Positions 1 to 10,858 of a DNA stretch of 10,858 nucleotides are shown here, piece after piece. Under the pieces are notes generated by a model. It saw nothing but the letters and a program-made list of their open reading frames with translations, did not search any database and was not told the origin of the DNA. Made by a program: the position numbers and the translations under genes. The DNA is from a virus (Duplodnaviria > Heunggongvirae > Uroviricota > Caudoviricetes): IMG/VR virus record IMGVR_UViG_2711768001_000007; one strand, 5' to 3'. The first letter of the stretch is position 1. Each line of letters begins with the position of its first letter.

Positions 1-70
1 ATGATAGTTATTTATCATCTAGTGTTCGCGGGTGTTCGTGGTAGTGTTTTGTGTGCATTCATCGCTATGA
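1..70. repeat. Left terminal direct repeat, 70 bp, identical to 10789-10858; putative att core (attL side)
   Basis: Base-by-base comparison shows 1-70 and 10789-10858 are identical. It lies directly next to the integrase and clustered short repeats. It does not look like a tRNA 3' end. Confidence 0.8.
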
Positions 71-5437: not shown

Positions 5438-5450
5438 ACTTATGGAATAA

Positions 5451-5673
5451 CTGTTCACCACTGTTCACCCTGTTATAAATATCTTTTATATCAGTATATT
5501 ATAGGGTGAACAGTTATTTATGAACTGTTCACCAAACTATTCACTGTTCACCTTTTTGATTGTTTATTGAGCTTCAAGGGTGAACAGTGGTGAACAGTTG
5601 GTGAATAGTTTTTGTGAAACTGTTCACCCCTTAACATTATGAATTAAAAGATAAAATATCAAAAGGTGAACAG
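5451..5673. repeat. Iteron-type replication origin: about 9-10 copies of GGTGAACAG / CTGTTCACC in both orientations within AT-rich DNA
   Basis: Copies at 5451-5459, 5461-5469, 5505-5513, 5525-5533, 5544-5552, 5579-5587, 5589-5597, 5600-5608 (degenerate), 5620-5628, 5665-5673. The core matches the TGTTCACC type I iteron of the P4 ori/crr as I recall it. Confidence 0.8.
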
Positions 5674-5724
5674 GTGAAGGGTTAAAACGCAAAAATTTTA
5701 ATTTACTGCTGTGAGATAAAGCCT

Positions 5725-5970: not shown

Positions 5971-6389
5971 CAGCACAGATAGCGGCTTACGGGCGGCTGG
6001 TGGCTGACCCGCAGTTAAAGACCACCAGCAAGGGTACACAAATGACGATGGCGAGTATGGCGGTCCCACTTCCGTGCAGCCAGGCAGATGACGGAACGGC
6101 GACGATGTGGTTATCCGTCCTGGCGTTTGGCAGACAGGCCGAAGCACTGGCAAAGCACCGCAAGGGTGAACTCCTGAGCGTGGCGGGTAACATGCAGGTG
6201 AGCCAGTGGACCGGACAGAACGGGGAGACGCGGCAGGGCTGGCAGGTTATCGCAGACAGCGTAATCAGTGCGAGAACGGCGCGACCGGGCGGCAAAAAAG
6301 GCCAACAGGGGCAGGCTACTGATGCACTGAGCAGAGCAAAACAACAGGCGGGAAATGATGATCCGTACGGGGATAACATACCGTTTTAA
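5967..6389 (+). CDS. ssb: Single-stranded DNA-binding protein homolog (OB fold) with C-terminal acidic ...DNIPF tip
   Basis: 140-aa product aligns by eye with E. coli SSB: LSVLAFGRQAE vs HRVVLFGKLAE, VSQWTGQNGETRQ vs RTRKWTDQSGQDR, and C-terminal DDPYGDNIPF vs DFDDDIPF. Confidence 0.75.
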   Translation: MTAQIAAYGRLVADPQLKTTSKGTQMTMASMAVPLPCSQADDGTATMWLSVLAFGRQAEALAKHRKGELLSVAGNMQVSQWTGQNGETRQGWQVIADSVISARTARPGGKKGQQGQATDALSRAKQQAGNDDPYGDNIPF

Positions 6390-6428: not shown

Positions 6429-6497
6429 TGGGTCCTCCCGGTGTAGTGACCTGCCACGGGGCGGGAGCGTCGCGGAAAAAGGCTGGTTTTTGCATTT
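6429..6497 (+). repeat. Conserved ~70-bp element, copy 1 (about 92% identical to 8964-9035)
   Basis: GGGTCCTCCCGGTG...CCACGGGGCGGGAGCG.CGCGGAAAAAGGCT.GTTTTTGCATTTTCA. Internal dyad CTCCCG/CGGGAG and GGTG/CCAC. Differences between copies cluster in the putative loop. Confidence 0.7.
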
Positions 6498-6688
6498 TCA
6501 TGGCGGCGGCAGCATGTGTAGTAATTTATTGATAATTAAAAGTTATTTCTGTTTTCACCTGTACAATATTTTTTTCTCCCTGTCATTAGACCAGTTTGCA
6601 ATTAATTGAAATATATAAATAAATCTGTTTTTCACCTGCCAGGTGGAGTTGCCTGTGTCAAAACGTGTTCAGATGGCGGGATATTTAT

Positions 6689-6813: not shown

Positions 6814-7023
6814 GTGAGTTGTATTAATGACCTGAACACGGGCGATATCAGGGGTGGTTCCGTTCATCTGGATGCGCAGACCGTTATGCGCCTTAAGCAG
6901 TACAGGATCGACCATATAAATCATCATCCTGACCAACCATTACCAGGTGTGGCGCAGATTGTCAGACATGCCGTAAACACCTGGCTTAATCAGAATGGTT
7001 TTGCATCGGTGGGGGAACAATGA
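6814..7023 (+). CDS. Hypothetical small protein (69 aa), possibly RHH-like, translationally coupled to the protease-capsid gene
   Basis: GTG start 6814 with strong RBS AAGAGGA (6800-6806). Stop overlaps capsid start (ATGA 7020-7023). RHH assignment is a guess from a beta-strand then two-helix pattern. Confidence 0.45.
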   Translation: MSCINDLNTGDIRGGSVHLDAQTVMRLKQYRIDHINHHPDQPLPGVAQIVRHAVNTWLNQNGFASVGEQ

Positions 7024-8933
7024 ATCGCTGGTACACCATTAAGGCGGCGGATGTTCGCGGAGCGGCGGATATATCTATCTATGAGGAGATTGGCGGCTTC
7101 GGTGTTACTGCAAAGCAGTTCGCGGAAGACCTGAAAGCCCTTGGCGATGTTTCACATATCAATCTGAGGATCCATTCACCAGGTGGTGATGTGTTTGAAG
7201 GCATCGCCATCTATAACCTGCTACGGAATCATCCGGCAGACATTACGGTTTATATCGATGGTGTTGCGGCTTCAATGGCTTCGGTGGTCGCAATGGCTGG
7301 CGATCGTGTTGTGATGCCGGAAAACGCCATGATGATGATACATAAGCCGTGGGGTATCTCTGGCGGAAATGCTGGTGATATGCGTGATTATGCTGATTTG
7401 CTGGATAAGGTGGAAACCGTGTTAGTCCCTGCTTATGCCAGAAAAACGGGCAAATCAGCACAGGAAATTACCGCCATGCTGGAAGATGAAACCTGGATGG
7501 ACGGGAAAGAATGCCTTAAGCACGGTTTTGCTGATGAATTGTTGCCATCCGTCAGAGCAATGGCGCGAATTGAATCGAAGCGCACAGGAGATTTTTTACA
7601 TATGCCGGAAACCATTAAAGGAATGATTACACCGCCACAGGGAGCGGCAAATATTGCTGGTAATGAACAGAAACGCATCAATGGAATAAGTGAAGTGTTT
7701 AGCCTGTTCGGCAGTCGTTACGACGGGATCAAAATGGCGTGTCTGGAAGATGCATCATGTACACCGGAAATGGCCCGTGAAAAGCTGTTGAACGAGCTGG
7801 GGCGCGAGTCCACGCCATCCAATAAAAATACCCCGGCTCATATCTATGCCGGAAACGGAAACATAACAGGTGATGCAATTCGTCAGGGGCTTTATTCCCG
7901 TCTTGGGTATGAACGGCCTGAACGAGGCAACCCTTACGCGATGATGAGTCTTTTTGAAATGGCCCAGGCATCACTGGTTGATCGTGGTATCACTGTGAGC
8001 GGTTTTATTAATCGCTCGCAGGTTGTTAATGCGGCTTTTACACACAGCAGCAGTGATTTTTCTCATATTCTGGCTGGTGGGGCTGAAAAATCTGTACTGA
8101 AAGGCTGGCAGGACAGCGGCGAAACGTTCCAGAAATGGACGCGTACCGGTTCGCTTTCAAACTTTCATGAAGCAAAGCGCGTTGGTCTGAATGGTTTTTC
8201 AAAGCTGGATAAAGTACCGGAAGGTGCGGAATATAAATACATCACCACCAGCGATAAAGGTGTACCTATTGCGCTGGCCACGTACGGGAATATATTTTCC
8301 GTTACCCGTCAGGCCATTATCAACGATGACCTGACCCAGTTAACTACAATCCCCATGGCGATGGGACGCGCAGCTGCCAGAACAGTTGGCAATCTGGTTT
8401 ATCTCCTGTTAACCAGCAACGGCAAGTTTACGGATGGTAAAGCGTTATTCCATGCCGATCATAAAAATCTTATTGCGAAGGATATGGACATGGAGGGGCT
8501 TAACGAAGCCCGTAAGCTGATGCGCCTCCAGGAAGACGCTAACGGCGATTCGCTGAATATTACCCCTGCATTTGTCCTGGTCCCCGCCGCGCTGGAGTCT
8601 GCCGCACATCGCGCCATTCTGTCATCGTCATCACTCTTTCCGGTTGATGGCGTGGGCACTATCAATCAGAACCCCGGCATCATTAACGTGGTGAAAGATA
8701 TGGCGGAGGTAATCGTTGAGCCACGTCTTGATAAAGCCAATAACAAGGAGTGGTATGTGGCAGCGGCGAAGGGTATGGACACGATAGAGGTCGCTTATCT
8801 TGATGGTATTGATACGCCATATCTTGAGGAGCAGGAGGGCTTTACTGTTGATGGCGTCGCCTGGAAGGTGCGCATAGATGCAGGTGTCGCGGCCCTCGAC
8901 TATCGCGGATTACTGAAATCGAGTGGAGCATGA
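7020..8933 (+). CDS. Fusion protein: N-terminal ClpP-family prohead protease plus C-terminal probable phage major capsid protein
   Basis: N-terminal ~190 aa align with ClpP: IHSPGGDV vs INSPGGVI, GVAASMAS vs GQAASMGA (catalytic Ser), MIHKPW vs MIHQP (catalytic His). The C-terminal ~440 aa have capsid-like character (ending ...GVAALDYRG); that part is a judgement call. Confidence 0.8.
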   Translation: MNRWYTIKAADVRGAADISIYEEIGGFGVTAKQFAEDLKALGDVSHINLRIHSPGGDVFEGIAIYNLLRNHPADITVYIDGVAASMASVVAMAGDRVVMPENAMMMIHKPWGISGGNAGDMRDYADLLDKVETVLVPAYARKTGKSAQEITAMLEDETWMDGKECLKHGFADELLPSVRAMARIESKRTGDFLHMPETIKGMITPPQGAANIAGNEQKRINGISEVFSLFGSRYDGIKMACLEDASCTPEMAREKLLNELGRESTPSNKNTPAHIYAGNGNITGDAIRQGLYSRLGYERPERGNPYAMMSLFEMAQASLVDRGITVSGFINRSQVVNAAFTHSSSDFSHILAGGAEKSVLKGWQDSGETFQKWTRTGSLSNFHEAKRVGLNGFSKLDKVPEGAEYKYITTSDKGVPIALATYGNIFSVTRQAIINDDLTQLTTIPMAMGRAAARTVGNLVYLLLTSNGKFTDGKALFHADHKNLIAKDMDMEGLNEARKLMRLQEDANGDSLNITPAFVLVPAALESAAHRAILSSSSLFPVDGVGTINQNPGIINVVKDMAEVIVEPRLDKANNKEWYVAAAKGMDTIEVAYLDGIDTPYLEEQEGFTVDGVAWKVRIDAGVAALDYRGLLKSSGA

Positions 8934-8937
8934 CAAC

Positions 8938-8963
8938 AAGGGCGGCGATAGCCGCCTTTTTTT
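8938..8963 (+). terminator. GC hairpin plus T-run after the capsid gene; terminator-like, and also contains a 9-nt match to lambda cosN
   Basis: Stem GGCGGC (8941-8946) / GCCGCC (8951-8956), loop GATA, T-run 8957-8963. GGGCGGCGA (8940-8948) matches the first 9 nt of lambda cosN GGGCGGCGACCT as I recall it. Confidence 0.5.
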
Positions 8964-9035
8964 ACGGGTCCTCCCGGTGGGGTGGTCTGCCACGGGGCGG
9001 GAGCGGCGCGGAAAAAGGCTAGTTTTTGCATTTTC
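8964..9035 (+). repeat. Conserved ~70-bp element, copy 2 (about 92% identical to 6429-6497)
   Basis: See copy 1. Same position relative to a GC hairpin plus T-run. Confidence 0.7.
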
Positions 9036-9190
9036 ATTCGTCATCATCATCTTTCTATAATGTTGAATTTTAAGTGTTTTTATTTTTGGTATGTTAATTT
9101 TGCTTATTTTGTGTTCAACATACAGCGCGTTTTTTGACCTTTTTTAAAAGATATTTGCAAGATGCATTTTTAAAACATTCTGGAGCGGGT

Positions 9191-9676
9191 ATGGATCGGG
9201 AACTGAAAAATCTGATGCTGAACATTAACCAGCTGGCGGCGATAGCGGGAATATGTCGCCAGACTGCGGCGGCAAGGCTGAAAAATATCCAGCCAGCCGG
9301 AGGACATGACAAGCTGAAACTCTATCGGGTGACTGACATTCTGACTTGTTTTCTTGATCTTCCCGTTCCGGCATCACTGGAAGAAATGGAGCCACACGAC
9401 CGTAAGGCCTGGTATCAGTCCGAACGTGAGCGCCTCAAGTTCGAACAGGAAACGGCGCAACTCATACCCGCCGATGATGTGCGAAAAGAGATGGCTATAT
9501 GGGGAGAAATCGTAAGCGAGGAACTGGAAAAACTCCCCAGTATTCTGGCACGTGATGTTGGGCTTAAACCGATGGCAGTAAACAGAGTGCAGTCAATTAT
9601 TGACGATTTGTGTAATCAGATTATCAGCCGGATGGTAAAAAATGACGTAGTGAATGAGGTCGCAAAACAGGCATGA
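9191..9676 (+). CDS. Terminase small subunit, lambda Nu1-like
   Basis: From ATG 9191 (GGAG RBS 9183-9186). NQLAAIAGICRQTAAARLKNIQPAGGHDKLKLYRVTDIL parallels lambda Nu1 KKQLADIFGASIRTIQNWQEQGMPVLRGGGKGNEVLYDSAAVI (from memory). The track ORF starts at TTG 9134, which I consider less likely. Confidence 0.7.
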   Translation: MDRELKNLMLNINQLAAIAGICRQTAAARLKNIQPAGGHDKLKLYRVTDILTCFLDLPVPASLEEMEPHDRKAWYQSERERLKFEQETAQLIPADDVRKEMAIWGEIVSEELEKLPSILARDVGLKPMAVNRVQSIIDDLCNQIISRMVKNDVVNEVAKQA

Positions 9677-9960
9677 TAATGACCGAATCTGAAATACTGC
9701 GATTAATCCGCTGTGCTGGTGGAATTAGCCAGTTGGCTGACGAACAGGCCGCGCAGCCGGATACAGTCACCGCTGAAAATTACGCGCGTGTGGTGGCTGA
9801 GGTGATGCGCCGTGACGGTATTGAGCTTAACGGCGTGGATATGCGCAACATACGAACCAGAGTCCTTGAGTTGCTGGCATACCGTCGCCGTTCTCAACAA
9901 CGGAGGGAGAGCGCGAAAAATACTTACCAGTGGAAGAAGCCGGAACGGTTGCAGCGGTAG
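9673..9960 (+). CDS. Hypothetical 95-aa protein with weak resemblance to the N-terminal Nu1-binding segment of lambda large terminase gpA
   Basis: ATGA overlap with the terS-like gene, as Nu1 and A overlap in lambda. SEILRLIRCAGGISQLADEQAAQPDTVTAENY vs gpA SQVNRLRHFVRAGLRSLFRPEPQTAVEWADANY. Similarity ends after ~40 aa and the ORF stops at 95 aa. Confidence 0.45.
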   Translation: MIMTESEILRLIRCAGGISQLADEQAAQPDTVTAENYARVVAEVMRRDGIELNGVDMRNIRTRVLELLAYRRRSQQRRESAKNTYQWKKPERLQR

Positions 9961-10299
9961 ATTCCTGATATTCAGGAAAACCACGAATCTGTGGGGTTTA
10001 CTGGCGCGGTTACGGCGGTGACACGCACCGAGGCAGAACAATTACCGTAGGTTAAAGCGACAGTATTCACACCAAAGGCAGAAATTAGCGGTTAACGTAA
10101 CTGACTGATATTTTCGGGAACAGCCAACGGCTGAGGCCGGAGCTATAAAAATAGCTTTGGGTACAGTCCTCAGTTTTGAGGGATGTTAACCAACTGAATA
10201 ATAAGCAAACCTCAAAATTGAGTTTTGTATCTGCCTGAGTTATTTCTGTGCTAACTTGCTGATATTCCCGATAGCGCAAAAGTGCGTTGGCTGGTGGGT

Positions 10300-10319
10300 G
10301 AGTTGCAGATCTGCAACTC
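10300..10319. repeat. Perfect 20-bp palindrome GAGTTGCAGATCTGCAACTC
   Basis: Reverse complement is identical; in a non-coding region with other dyads at 10338-10358 (ACTACCC/GGGTAGT) and 10392-10412 (GATACCC/GGGTATC). Confidence 0.7.
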
Positions 10320-10445
10320 GACCATGAAATTACGGAAACTACCCGTAGTTTGGGTAGTAAGAGTAACACCCAGATTTTGGGGCTTACTCGCGATACCCAA
10401 ATAAAGGGTATCTGTGGAAGAAATATCGTTTCTCATATGTGAGTA

Positions 10446-10516
10446 CCGAGGGCGGAATTCCGCCTTCGGTTACTTATTGTGCTCATGCACAGGGAGGGGC
10501 GGGTCAAATCCCTGTG
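10446..10516. repeat. Cluster of three hairpin/palindrome elements: near-perfect 24-bp palindrome with GGCGGAATTCCGCC core (10451-10464), TGTGC/GCACA (10478-10491), CACAGGGA/TCCCTGTG (10488-10516)
   Basis: Read directly from the sequence; non-coding. Could be a structured RNA or protein-binding sites. Confidence 0.6.
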
Positions 10517-10660
10517 ACCTGACGTCTTCCGGACTGCCAGCCCCATCGATTTTTTATACCCGCGAAAAATGAAAAACGCTTCACGCTGGTGGGCCTGATG
10601 CCGATAACTGGTTTCATGACTGATAGCCGGAAAATGATAACGATTAAAGCGTGTTGATCT

Positions 10661-10717
10661 TTGTTCGTGGTTGTTCGATATTGTTCGTGGAACGGTGTAG
10701 TTAATGGTGTAGTTAAT
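10661..10717. promoter_or_regulatory. Putative integrase arm-type sites at the right end: three 10-bp-phased TTGTTCG decamers (10661-10690) and tandem GGTGTAGTTAAT x2 (10694-10717)
   Basis: Mirror of the motif content at 91-164, same orientation, about 70 bp inside the right terminal repeat. Confidence 0.4.
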
Positions 10718-10788
10718 TTTACTGTTTTTGACGAGCTTATTGTTTGCAACTCAATGAAAAATAAAGGCTAATAAGCCAAATACTATAA

Positions 10789-10858
10789 ATGATAGTTATT
10801 TATCATCTAGTGTTCGCGGGTGTTCGTGGTAGTGTTTTGTGTGCATTCATCGCTATGA
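10789..10858. repeat. Right terminal direct repeat, 70 bp, identical to 1-70; putative att core (attR side)
   Basis: Exact identity to 1-70. Confidence 0.8.

Follow-up and report, generated by a model that had tools for sequence, protein, structure and literature searches.

The non-coding tail of an Escherichia coli phage satellite as a mosaic of probable packaging, termination and attachment modules with a conserved palindromic core

The non-coding stretch at positions 9961-10788 of IMG/VR record IMGVR_UViG_2711768001_000007 (10,858 nucleotides, all of which were analysed and are called the window here) belongs to an element that, by its gene content, is a satellite of the phage-inducible chromosomal island (PICI) type of E. 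coli, of the Gram-negative kind. We read this region with good confidence as the tail of the satellite, a mosaic of a helper-phage cos site, a transcription terminator, Chi sites and attP arms; that confidence applies to the identity of the modules and not to the function of a conserved 133-bp core that lies among them. Bounded by the final gene of the packaging operon on one side and by the attachment site on the other, the tail would act in cis through modules that are independent of each other. From the sequence we are fairly confident of four assignments: the operon transcript would end at 10445-10470, a helper terminase would cut at 10535-10544, Chi would limit RecBCD, and the integrase and AlpA would work on the arm repeats. 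Identities, positions and distributions are what the sequence itself shows; cutting at cos, termination, protection by Chi, binding to the arms and any role of the core are inferences from it. An earlier note had described five dyads in this region and suggested that their density marks structured RNA or a cluster of protein-binding sites. The dyads do not form one structured unit but belong to three unrelated modules, namely the core, the terminator and cos. The features of the tail and its borders are as follows.

9673 to 9960, + strand: last gene of the operon, 95 aa, PHROG 1561 (E = 5e-52 in the PHROG search)
9961 to 10292, + strand: array of four degenerate hairpin modules, from repeat family D2 and a catalogue of 90 related regions; boxes start near 9966, 10106, 10196 and 10260; stems CCACG/TGTGG, CAGCC/GGCTG, CCTCA/TGAG and AGCGCA/TGCGTT
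10290 to 10297, + strand: Chi, GCTGGTGG, at the left edge of the core and ~240 bp left of the predicted cos cleavage site
10293 to 10425, no strand assigned: conserved satellite core, containing a 20-bp palindrome and three dyads of the same type
10300 to 10319, no strand assigned: palindrome GAGTTGCAGATCTGCAACTC, with an imperfect outer stem extending over 10294-10325
10338 to 10358, no strand assigned: dyad 1, ACTACCC gtagttt GGGTAGT, preceded by the box TGAAATTACGGAAA
10365 to 10385, no strand assigned: dyad 2 (weaker), ACACCC agatttt GGGGCT, inverted repeat I1
10392 to 10412, no strand assigned: dyad 3, GATACCC aaataaa GGGTATC
10445 to 10480, + strand: intrinsic-terminator-like hairpin with T-rich tail TTACTTATTGT, from the terminator scan
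10488 to 10575, + strand: cos site of an HNH-dependent (HK97/phiP27/SfV-type) packaging system; phage homology covers 10492-10574 only
10535 to 10544, + strand: predicted 10-nt cohesive end TGCCAGCCCC
10585 to 10592, + strand: Chi, GCTGGTGG, 41 bp right of the predicted cohesive end
10661 to 10717, + strand: candidate attP P-arm repeats, three KTGTTCG (10661, 10671, 10681) and two GGTGTAGTTAAT (10694-10717)
10789 to 10806, + strand: att core ATGATAGTTATTTATCAT, the same as window 1-18, from comparison of the attL and attR junctions of an integrated copy
19 to 184, + strand: candidate attP P' arm, which the circular form joins to the region
185 to 1423: integrase gene, reached through the P' arm in the circle

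A repeat search recovered all five dyads where the earlier note had placed them. The perfect 20-bp palindrome lies inside an imperfect 30-bp palindrome (10295-10324), stems of 7 bp are present at 10338-10358 and 10392-10412 and one of 8 bp at 10488-10516, and inverted 13-nt arms at 10445-10470 are 92% complementary (the near-perfect 24-bp palindrome of the note, 10446-10469). Only three perfect palindromes of at least 12 bp occur in the whole window and two of them are inside the region (10300-10319 and 10451-10464); the longest palindrome in shuffled windows had a mean of 13 bp (300 shuffles). The spaced motif TACCC-N7-GGGTA was found twice, with 0.14 expected. No sign of coding was found in the region, and RefSeq annotates no gene there in the integrated copy. 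Mechanical open reading frames (ORFs) of 52-94 aa do overlap it, the one point in favour of a degenerate or unannotated coding sequence, but they match zero PHROG families, coincide with no RefSeq call and span segments that are absent or replaced in other islands, making a coding origin very improbable. Because the coordinates were confirmed, the dyads exceed those of shuffled sequence and neither annotation nor a PHROG match covers them, the observation of a dyad-rich non-coding region stands. Its sub-segments differ in their distribution among E. coli genomes, and sharp module boundaries emerge when it is aligned with two other types of island, namely a capsid-forming PICI from an O157-like strain and an island that interrupts a prophage portal gene.

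The earlier note had offered a cluster of protein-binding sites for packaging or excision control as one explanation, and this part was supported, with a helper-phage cos at 10488-10575 and an attP arm and core at 10661-10806. Against 50,697 phage records, 10492-10574 is the only part of the region that matches. This 83-bp segment is 95-96% identical to the termini of SfV, SfIV, SfI, SfII and ST64B and 82% identical to phiP27, whose record has an annotated 10-nt cos site, CGCCCGCCCC, at the matching place. The cohesive end of SfI has been mapped by sequencing virion DNA as 5'-TGCCCGCCCC-3' (PMC3636060), and the predicted end of the island agrees with it at 9 of 10 positions. The same 83 bp in a prophage form the spacer between the genes for HNH and a P27-family small terminase subunit (TerS), and the homology begins and stops at phage gene boundaries. 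The cos sites of SfV, SfI, ST64B, phiP27 and HK97-type phages, which use HNH, a P27-family TerS and the large terminase subunit (TerL), have the blocks GGGAGGGGCGGGTCAAATC ... GGACTGCCNGCCCC ... TTTTTATACCCGCGAAAAATGAAA in common with the island. They differ from it in being flanked by HNH and TerS genes and in lacking two island substitutions, at 10539 and 10550. In the island, cos lies between the terminator and attP, and there is no HNH or P27-family TerS gene. A satellite that depends on the proteins of its helper would be expected to have its cos outside the HNH-TerS context, and we therefore call this a satellite-carried cos of that type.

The sequence thus supports a packaging role for part of the region: once a helper is induced, its TerS, TerL and HNH would cut satellite concatemers at TGCCAGCCCC and then package them. 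SaPIbov5 of Staphylococcus aureus and P4 likewise carry a copy of a helper cos for packaging by the helper terminase, and SaPIbov5 also needs the phage HNH endonuclease. The copy described here is 95-96% identical to the HNH-phage cos; it differs from those two cases in host and sequence, which are unrelated, and in that the island adds its own TerS and two lambda-type cos sites.

The HNH-type cos varies among relatives. In other islands the slot is occupied by other variants of the HNH-phage cos, among them one that matches both phi467 and the end of mEp235, and the occurrence of different variants in one slot points to repeated acquisition. Among related islands with enough flanking sequence, this type of cos was found in 10 of 46 islands with a DUF1441/lambda-type TerS versus 0 of 8 capsid-forming PICIs. 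The latter have cos-like sequence beside their own HNH-TerS genes; in one of them (L003, 4340-4420) the cos-like GGGGTGGGGGGCG ... CCGACCGCC ... TCAAATTTTTATGCACGGG lies between an HNH-adjacent ORF and terS, as in phages. The 8-bp hairpin at 10488-10516 is the left part of cos, and the related cos sites do not keep it as a hairpin.

Some observations weigh against an active cos. A C-to-A change at 10539 falls within the predicted cohesive end when compared with phage TGCCCGCCCC, and a T-to-A change is found at 10550; neither was seen in the phages examined, and because of these substitutions the island cos could be impaired or retuned. The A allele at 10539 is present in at least 9 other islands and in no aligned phage cos sequence. 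Changes of this kind would fit a history in which recombination between satellites and phages left both the HNH-type cos and the core behind as inert remnants, carried along between Chi and attP. Other points in favour are the evident mosaicism of the terminal region, where islands differ by gain, loss and duplication of modules, the coincidence of a Chi site with the left edge of the conserved block, and the presence in the island of a TerS of its own and of two cos sites of the lambda type. We nevertheless consider inert remnants improbable, as the phage homology is confined to the functional intergenic cos segment, which is kept at 92-100% in many islands, different HNH-phage cos variants occupy one slot across islands, and the core is found at a minimum of four integration sites in 13% of complete E. 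coli genomes.

The HNH-type cos is not the only probable packaging signal in the window. Two near-identical lambda-type cos sites (6430-6500 and 8965-9040) each lie over an end/start junction of phage cdtI, at 6458/6459 and 8994/8995, and the second is just upstream of the DUF1441 TerS gene. E. coli PICIs have been described in the literature as using lambda-type cos sites. EcCICFT073, the prototype of the E. coli PICIs, has an iteron origin, the genes int, alpA and primase-rep, and two lambda-like cosN sites, cos1 and cos2 (PMC6092414, PMC6739421), the same kind of pair as in this island. It differs in having no TerS, its Rpp retargeting the phage TerS, whereas this island has a DUF1441 TerS and a protease-capsid fusion; the papers on EcCICFT073 (PMC6092414, PMC6739421) do not describe the HNH-type cos of this region. 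Because the island combines an HNH-type cos with lambda-type cos sites and its own TerS, it can probably be packaged by two unrelated helper systems. Our literature searches returned no classical-type E. coli PICI with an HNH-phage cos beside a lambda-type cos.

To the right of cos, the sequence has the organization of an attachment site. The apparent right end of the region, as the earlier note had called it, turned out to be an artefact of linearization. The last 70 nt (10789-10858) are identical to the first 70 (1-70), so that the window closes into a circle of 10,788 bp of unique sequence; position 10788 is merely the last unique base, and the circle runs on into attP and the integrase gene. 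The att core sequence ATGATAGTTATYTATCAT flanks the integrated island of NZ_AP022482.1 on either side, whereas the circle has a single copy. Motifs of the P arm recur on the P' arm, with four copies of the KTGTTCG family (22, 32, 95 and 105) and the GGTGTAGTTAAT family at 138-161, and KTGTTCGH occurs only once elsewhere in the window. GGTGTAGTYAAT is found twice on each arm and nowhere else in the window (4 matches, 0.10 expected). An attP is thus indicated by a core at both junctions, motifs on both arms and an integrase with a PF13356 domain. The repeats at 10661-10717 are probable arm-type sites for the integrase and/or the excision factor AlpA, and these proteins would act through them and the mirror set on the other arm to integrate and excise the element; a role of the region in excision is supported to this extent. 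The attP of phage lambda, whose core is flanked by arm-type integrase sites with Xis sites on one arm, is similar in its core at both junctions, its short motifs on both arms and its arm-binding integrase; its motif sequences are unrelated to those of the island.

Chi sites border both the core and cos. The window has 12 copies of GCTGGTGG, where shuffles predict 0.34, or one per 0.9 kb; 8 are on the + strand (all positions: 297, 1069, 2150, 4433, 5116, 5996, 6022, 8073, 8245, 9715, 10290 and 10585). Recognition of Chi by RecBCD takes place from the 3' side of the site, and in lambda-type concatemers the enzyme enters at the free end that terminase leaves. For RecBCD entering at cos, the Chi at 10290 would be correctly oriented and ~240 bp inside the end, and we infer by analogy that this site and the one at 10585 may stop RecBCD coming in from a cut cos end.

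The remaining assignment is the terminator. The hairpin at 10445-10470 has 11 pairs, 8 of them G-C, and a loop of AATT; it lies on the same strand as the operon and probably ends the operon transcript. The region is probably part of the 3' untranslated region (UTR) of the last operon. At the equivalent place, another hairpin with a T-rich tail is found in capsid-forming PICIs, and the terminator scan found no terminator between the upstream stop codon and the core. The hairpin passes the consensus scan, which gave 2 sites with 1.1 expected; against termination here, the T-tract is weak, the tail TTACTTATTGT being only moderately T-rich.

Between the upstream modules and the terminator lies the 133-bp core. 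We found it in 704 of 5426 complete E. coli genomes (13%), annotated in none, and its copies span at least four integration sites; it has no match in the 50,697 phage records. Core identity is ~94-100% across islands of three packaging types, compared with 81-98% for the adjacent gene, and by these alignments the core is common to satellites with different integrases and packaging genes. The core and the HNH-type cos are independent of each other, as each is found without the other among islands. As an alternative to selection, islands that have lately exchanged their terminal block would also show such high identity.

The internal architecture of the core is regular. Dyads 1, 2 and 3 are centred at 10348, 10375 and 10402, an exact 27-bp spacing, and have the common form xACCC-N7-GGGx. 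Dyad 2 is nested in GAGTAA/TTACTC (10361-10389) and is the centre of a 73-bp quasi-palindrome over 10338-10412. In relatives, the central pair of the 20-bp palindrome goes from G-C to G.T to A-T and its outer pair 4/31 from G-C to A-T. The arms of dyad 3 are kept while its spacer varies between islands, and one double change gives GATCCCC/GGGGATC. The sole divergent core copy (L314, 76% identity, from a mislabelled chromosome in a plasmid collection) has an intact dyad 3 and a palindrome maintained by compensating changes, but the left half of dyad 1 is gone and dyad 2 is damaged. Searches for further diverged copies yielded little: a spaced-dyad pattern search of viral contigs returned near-identical core copies only, and a protein-based scan of genome contigs returned one locus. 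In two relatives (L195 5470-5580 and L070 3851-3940), GCATGTATTGCA repeats, 2-4 in tandem, take the place of the triple dyad after Chi and the 20-bp palindrome, and the palindrome is therefore a separable module.

Two further leads were set aside. Exact matches to the 20-bp palindrome fall mostly in phage KilA-N genes, where GAGTTGCAGATTTGCAACTC codes for SELQICNS, a coincidence; this sequence is present in the KilA-N coding sequence of L160 (1312-1760) and of about 75 other viral contigs and swamps exact-pattern searches. The dyads do not appear to mimic a helper repressor operator, a comparison made for SfV only, which has 15 matches with 12.5 expected, none of them in the annotated operator region.

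Upstream of the core is the module array, each module of which consists of a TGATATTYYCGRAAA-like box and, after it, a hairpin whose stem has 5-7 bp and whose A/T-rich loop has 3-4 nt. Dyad 1 of the core, with its box of the same kind, is a fifth module. Across the 90 related regions, paralogous modules have identical flanks and at least 15 different complementary stems, and their copy number varies between islands from 1 to about 8; one relative (L068) has a 54-bp tandem unit of modules. Mispairs would be G.U on the + strand in 60 cases and on the - strand in 33, which is weak evidence for a + strand RNA. REP/BIME-type extragenic hairpins and the lambda boxB/nut sites are similar in being short hairpins, with variable copy number and a location in 3' untranslated sequence. 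Some modules have A-rich loops on 5-bp stems. Both likenesses are analogies only, and REP sequences have no resemblance to the modules.

The gene that precedes the array is the last before the non-coding region in three island types, and a comparable non-coding stretch lies directly 3' of it in every related island examined that has sequence beyond the gene. Its 95-aa product has 875 homologue clusters, every one named "hypothetical", and no Pfam family or match among solved structures was found. AlphaFold predicted three helices with low confidence (pLDDT 58), a quality that does not allow a search by fold. The protein has a basic C-terminus, YRRRSQQRRESAKNTYQWKKPERLQR. We considered whether it could be a lambda-N-like arginine-rich binder of boxB-like hairpins and rejected this, since BLASTP found no similarity and there was neither a Pfam family nor a structure match. 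The final codons of the gene resemble the right flank of each module, as if the hairpin array had arisen through repeated duplication of a unit made of the gene end and a hairpin.

What the core and the module array do may be read in two ways, and we lean slightly, and tentatively, toward hairpins acting as RNA within the 3' UTR of the operon. In one version, which we rate as less likely than not, 9961-10470 would be a single functional structured RNA, either a small RNA (sRNA) derived from the 3' UTR or an RNA platform for protein binding, with transcripts of the helper or host as its targets. For 10250-10482, the fold energy of the + strand is -100.3 kcal/mol (z = -9.4 relative to dinucleotide shuffles) and the - strand gives z = -7.2; the + strand from the upstream stop codon onward (9958-10482) gives z = -8.1. 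The sequence lies between a stop codon and a terminator-like hairpin, with the core beginning 40 nt past the stop codon in most islands. Paralogous modules stay paired while their stems differ, the G.U bias is on the + strand, and the core is more conserved than the adjacent gene.

On the structured RNA proposed in the earlier note the evidence is divided: folding goes far beyond that of shuffled sequence, but several results weigh against it. Rfam has no match within the region at E up to 1, and a scan of four related loci at E up to 0.1 found nothing relevant and one chance match elsewhere. (A weak window match to ST7-OT4_3 at 8810-9113, outside the region, was also dismissed as chance.) Covariation in the core does not rise above shuffled controls: among 28 distinct copies, 95.8% of cells are paired and there are 2 double changes, a number equalled in 113 of 500 shuffles. 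The loops are conserved as much as the stems, the compensatory change at the centre of the palindrome is at a position that cannot pair in an RNA hairpin, and pairing in helices 2 and 3 is broken in the divergent copy. The promoter scan found no promoter-like site.

The other reading is protein binding to duplex DNA, which we judge from the sequence to be almost as likely as an RNA. The palindrome and the three phased dyads would then be a platform for a dimeric protein of the satellite, helper or host, controlling packaging, read-through or recombination near cos and attP. One half-site common to three dyads at exact 27-bp spacing within a 73-bp quasi-palindrome, dyad 3 arms that are kept while the spacer varies, symmetry-restoring changes at the palindrome centre and in dyad 3, and conservation of the sequence itself beyond pairing all point this way. 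A DNA platform is in turn less easily reconciled with the damage to dyads 1 and 2 in the divergent copy, the absence of diverged versions elsewhere in the pattern search, and the dyad motif being unenriched in SfV and absent from its operator region. We identified no candidate binding protein, and the neighbouring 95-aa protein gave only the low-confidence model.

The earlier note had also raised the possibility of a second cis-acting replication region, and this was not supported. The origin of the island lies at about 5440-5690, where nine TGTTCACC iterons (5452-5672) are arranged in both orientations around AT-rich DNA; we take this octamer to be the iteron bound by the P4 alpha primase, which fits the D5/P4-type primase of the island. 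Zero copies of TGTTCACC occur in 9961-10858 on either strand. A P4-like primase and origin, and the fact that two relatives, L235 and L304, have a second cluster of their own iteron in the same terminal slot, would be compatible with a region like the crr (cis replication region) of P4. We find this scarcely credible for the present island, as the iteron is absent from the region and the only short repeats there (KTGTTCG and GGTGTAGTTAAT) are mirrored around the att core by the integrase gene, as recombinase arm sites are. Because of the clusters in L235 and L304, the terminal slot itself can hold a replication-type element.

The loci concerned are 2051-2166 and 9710-9854 in L235 and 6080-6195 and 14029-14071 in L304, and a second cluster is also present in L151, L102, L269 and L028. 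Within the terminal non-coding region of these islands, AT-rich DNA is surrounded by six copies of GCGGGTTA/TAACCCGC, three of them direct and three inverted. In several relatives, L235 and L304 among them, the second cluster lies between two core copies and is followed by a diverged cos-like sequence. The ori and crr layout of P4 is resembled by these relatives and not by the island studied here.

Pfam and PHROG searches and the RefSeq annotation of the integrated copy identify an integrase with an arm-DNA-binding domain (PF13356), an AlpA regulator (Phage_AlpA), an Icd-like protein, a D5/P4-type primase (D5_N/Pox_D5), a single-stranded DNA-binding protein (SSB), a fusion of ClpP protease and major capsid protein, the DUF1441 TerS and the 95-aa protein with no assigned function. 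The int, AlpA and primase/rep genes, the iteron origin and the length of 10,788 bp (~10-15 kb expected) are those of a PICI. The fusion (7020-8933, 637 aa) joins a ClpP-like prohead protease to a major capsid protein in an island that lacks genes for a portal and a large terminase. A tRNA scan found no tRNA. A 99.9%-identical copy of the region, in an island with the same gene order, is present in 7 complete E. coli genomes, in each integrated between cspD/yljB and clpS. A circular 10,790-bp record with closely related gene order (NZ_CP148328.1) has been deposited as an E. coli plasmid, and this record together with the 70-nt terminal identity of the window suggests that the excised satellite is sometimes assembled as an episome. 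Two related islands are helper-embedded PICIs that lie within late genes of prophages, one inside the nuclease half of a gpA-type large terminase gene of a prophage (L018, 3666-4778) and one in a prophage portal gene (L002, 7738-8520); both keep the core near their right end.

Much of this organization is already familiar. Satellites with a helper cos are known from P4, SaPIbov5 and EcCICFT073, attP arms, terminators and Chi sites are ordinary, and most of the striking features of the region, those of the terminator, cos, the arm sites and Chi, have a conventional explanation. Literature searches found no description of the core or the modules and no small RNA reported from these islands. We therefore put forward, as a doubtful but specific proposal, that the core and module array are an undescribed satellite-specific cis element controlling the exploitation of helpers, and that the island is a dual-helper satellite, using its own TerS at the lambda-type cos sites and mimicking the cos of HNH phages. 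Being common, unannotated and more conserved than the neighbouring gene, the core is a defined target for deletion and binding experiments. If the proposal is true, roughly one E. coli genome in eight has a satellite-specific cis element of this kind. According to a speculation of the authors who described capsid-forming PICIs, it was the need of some phages for HNH that favoured satellites with a packaging module of their own. A classical-type island that simply has an HNH-phage cos beside its lambda-type cos sites would be a cheaper route to the same helpers, and would bear on a question that those authors raise, namely why more than one cos is found in some PICIs. Virulence and defence genes are spread among enterobacteria by satellites of this family, and the helpers that they can use set their reach.

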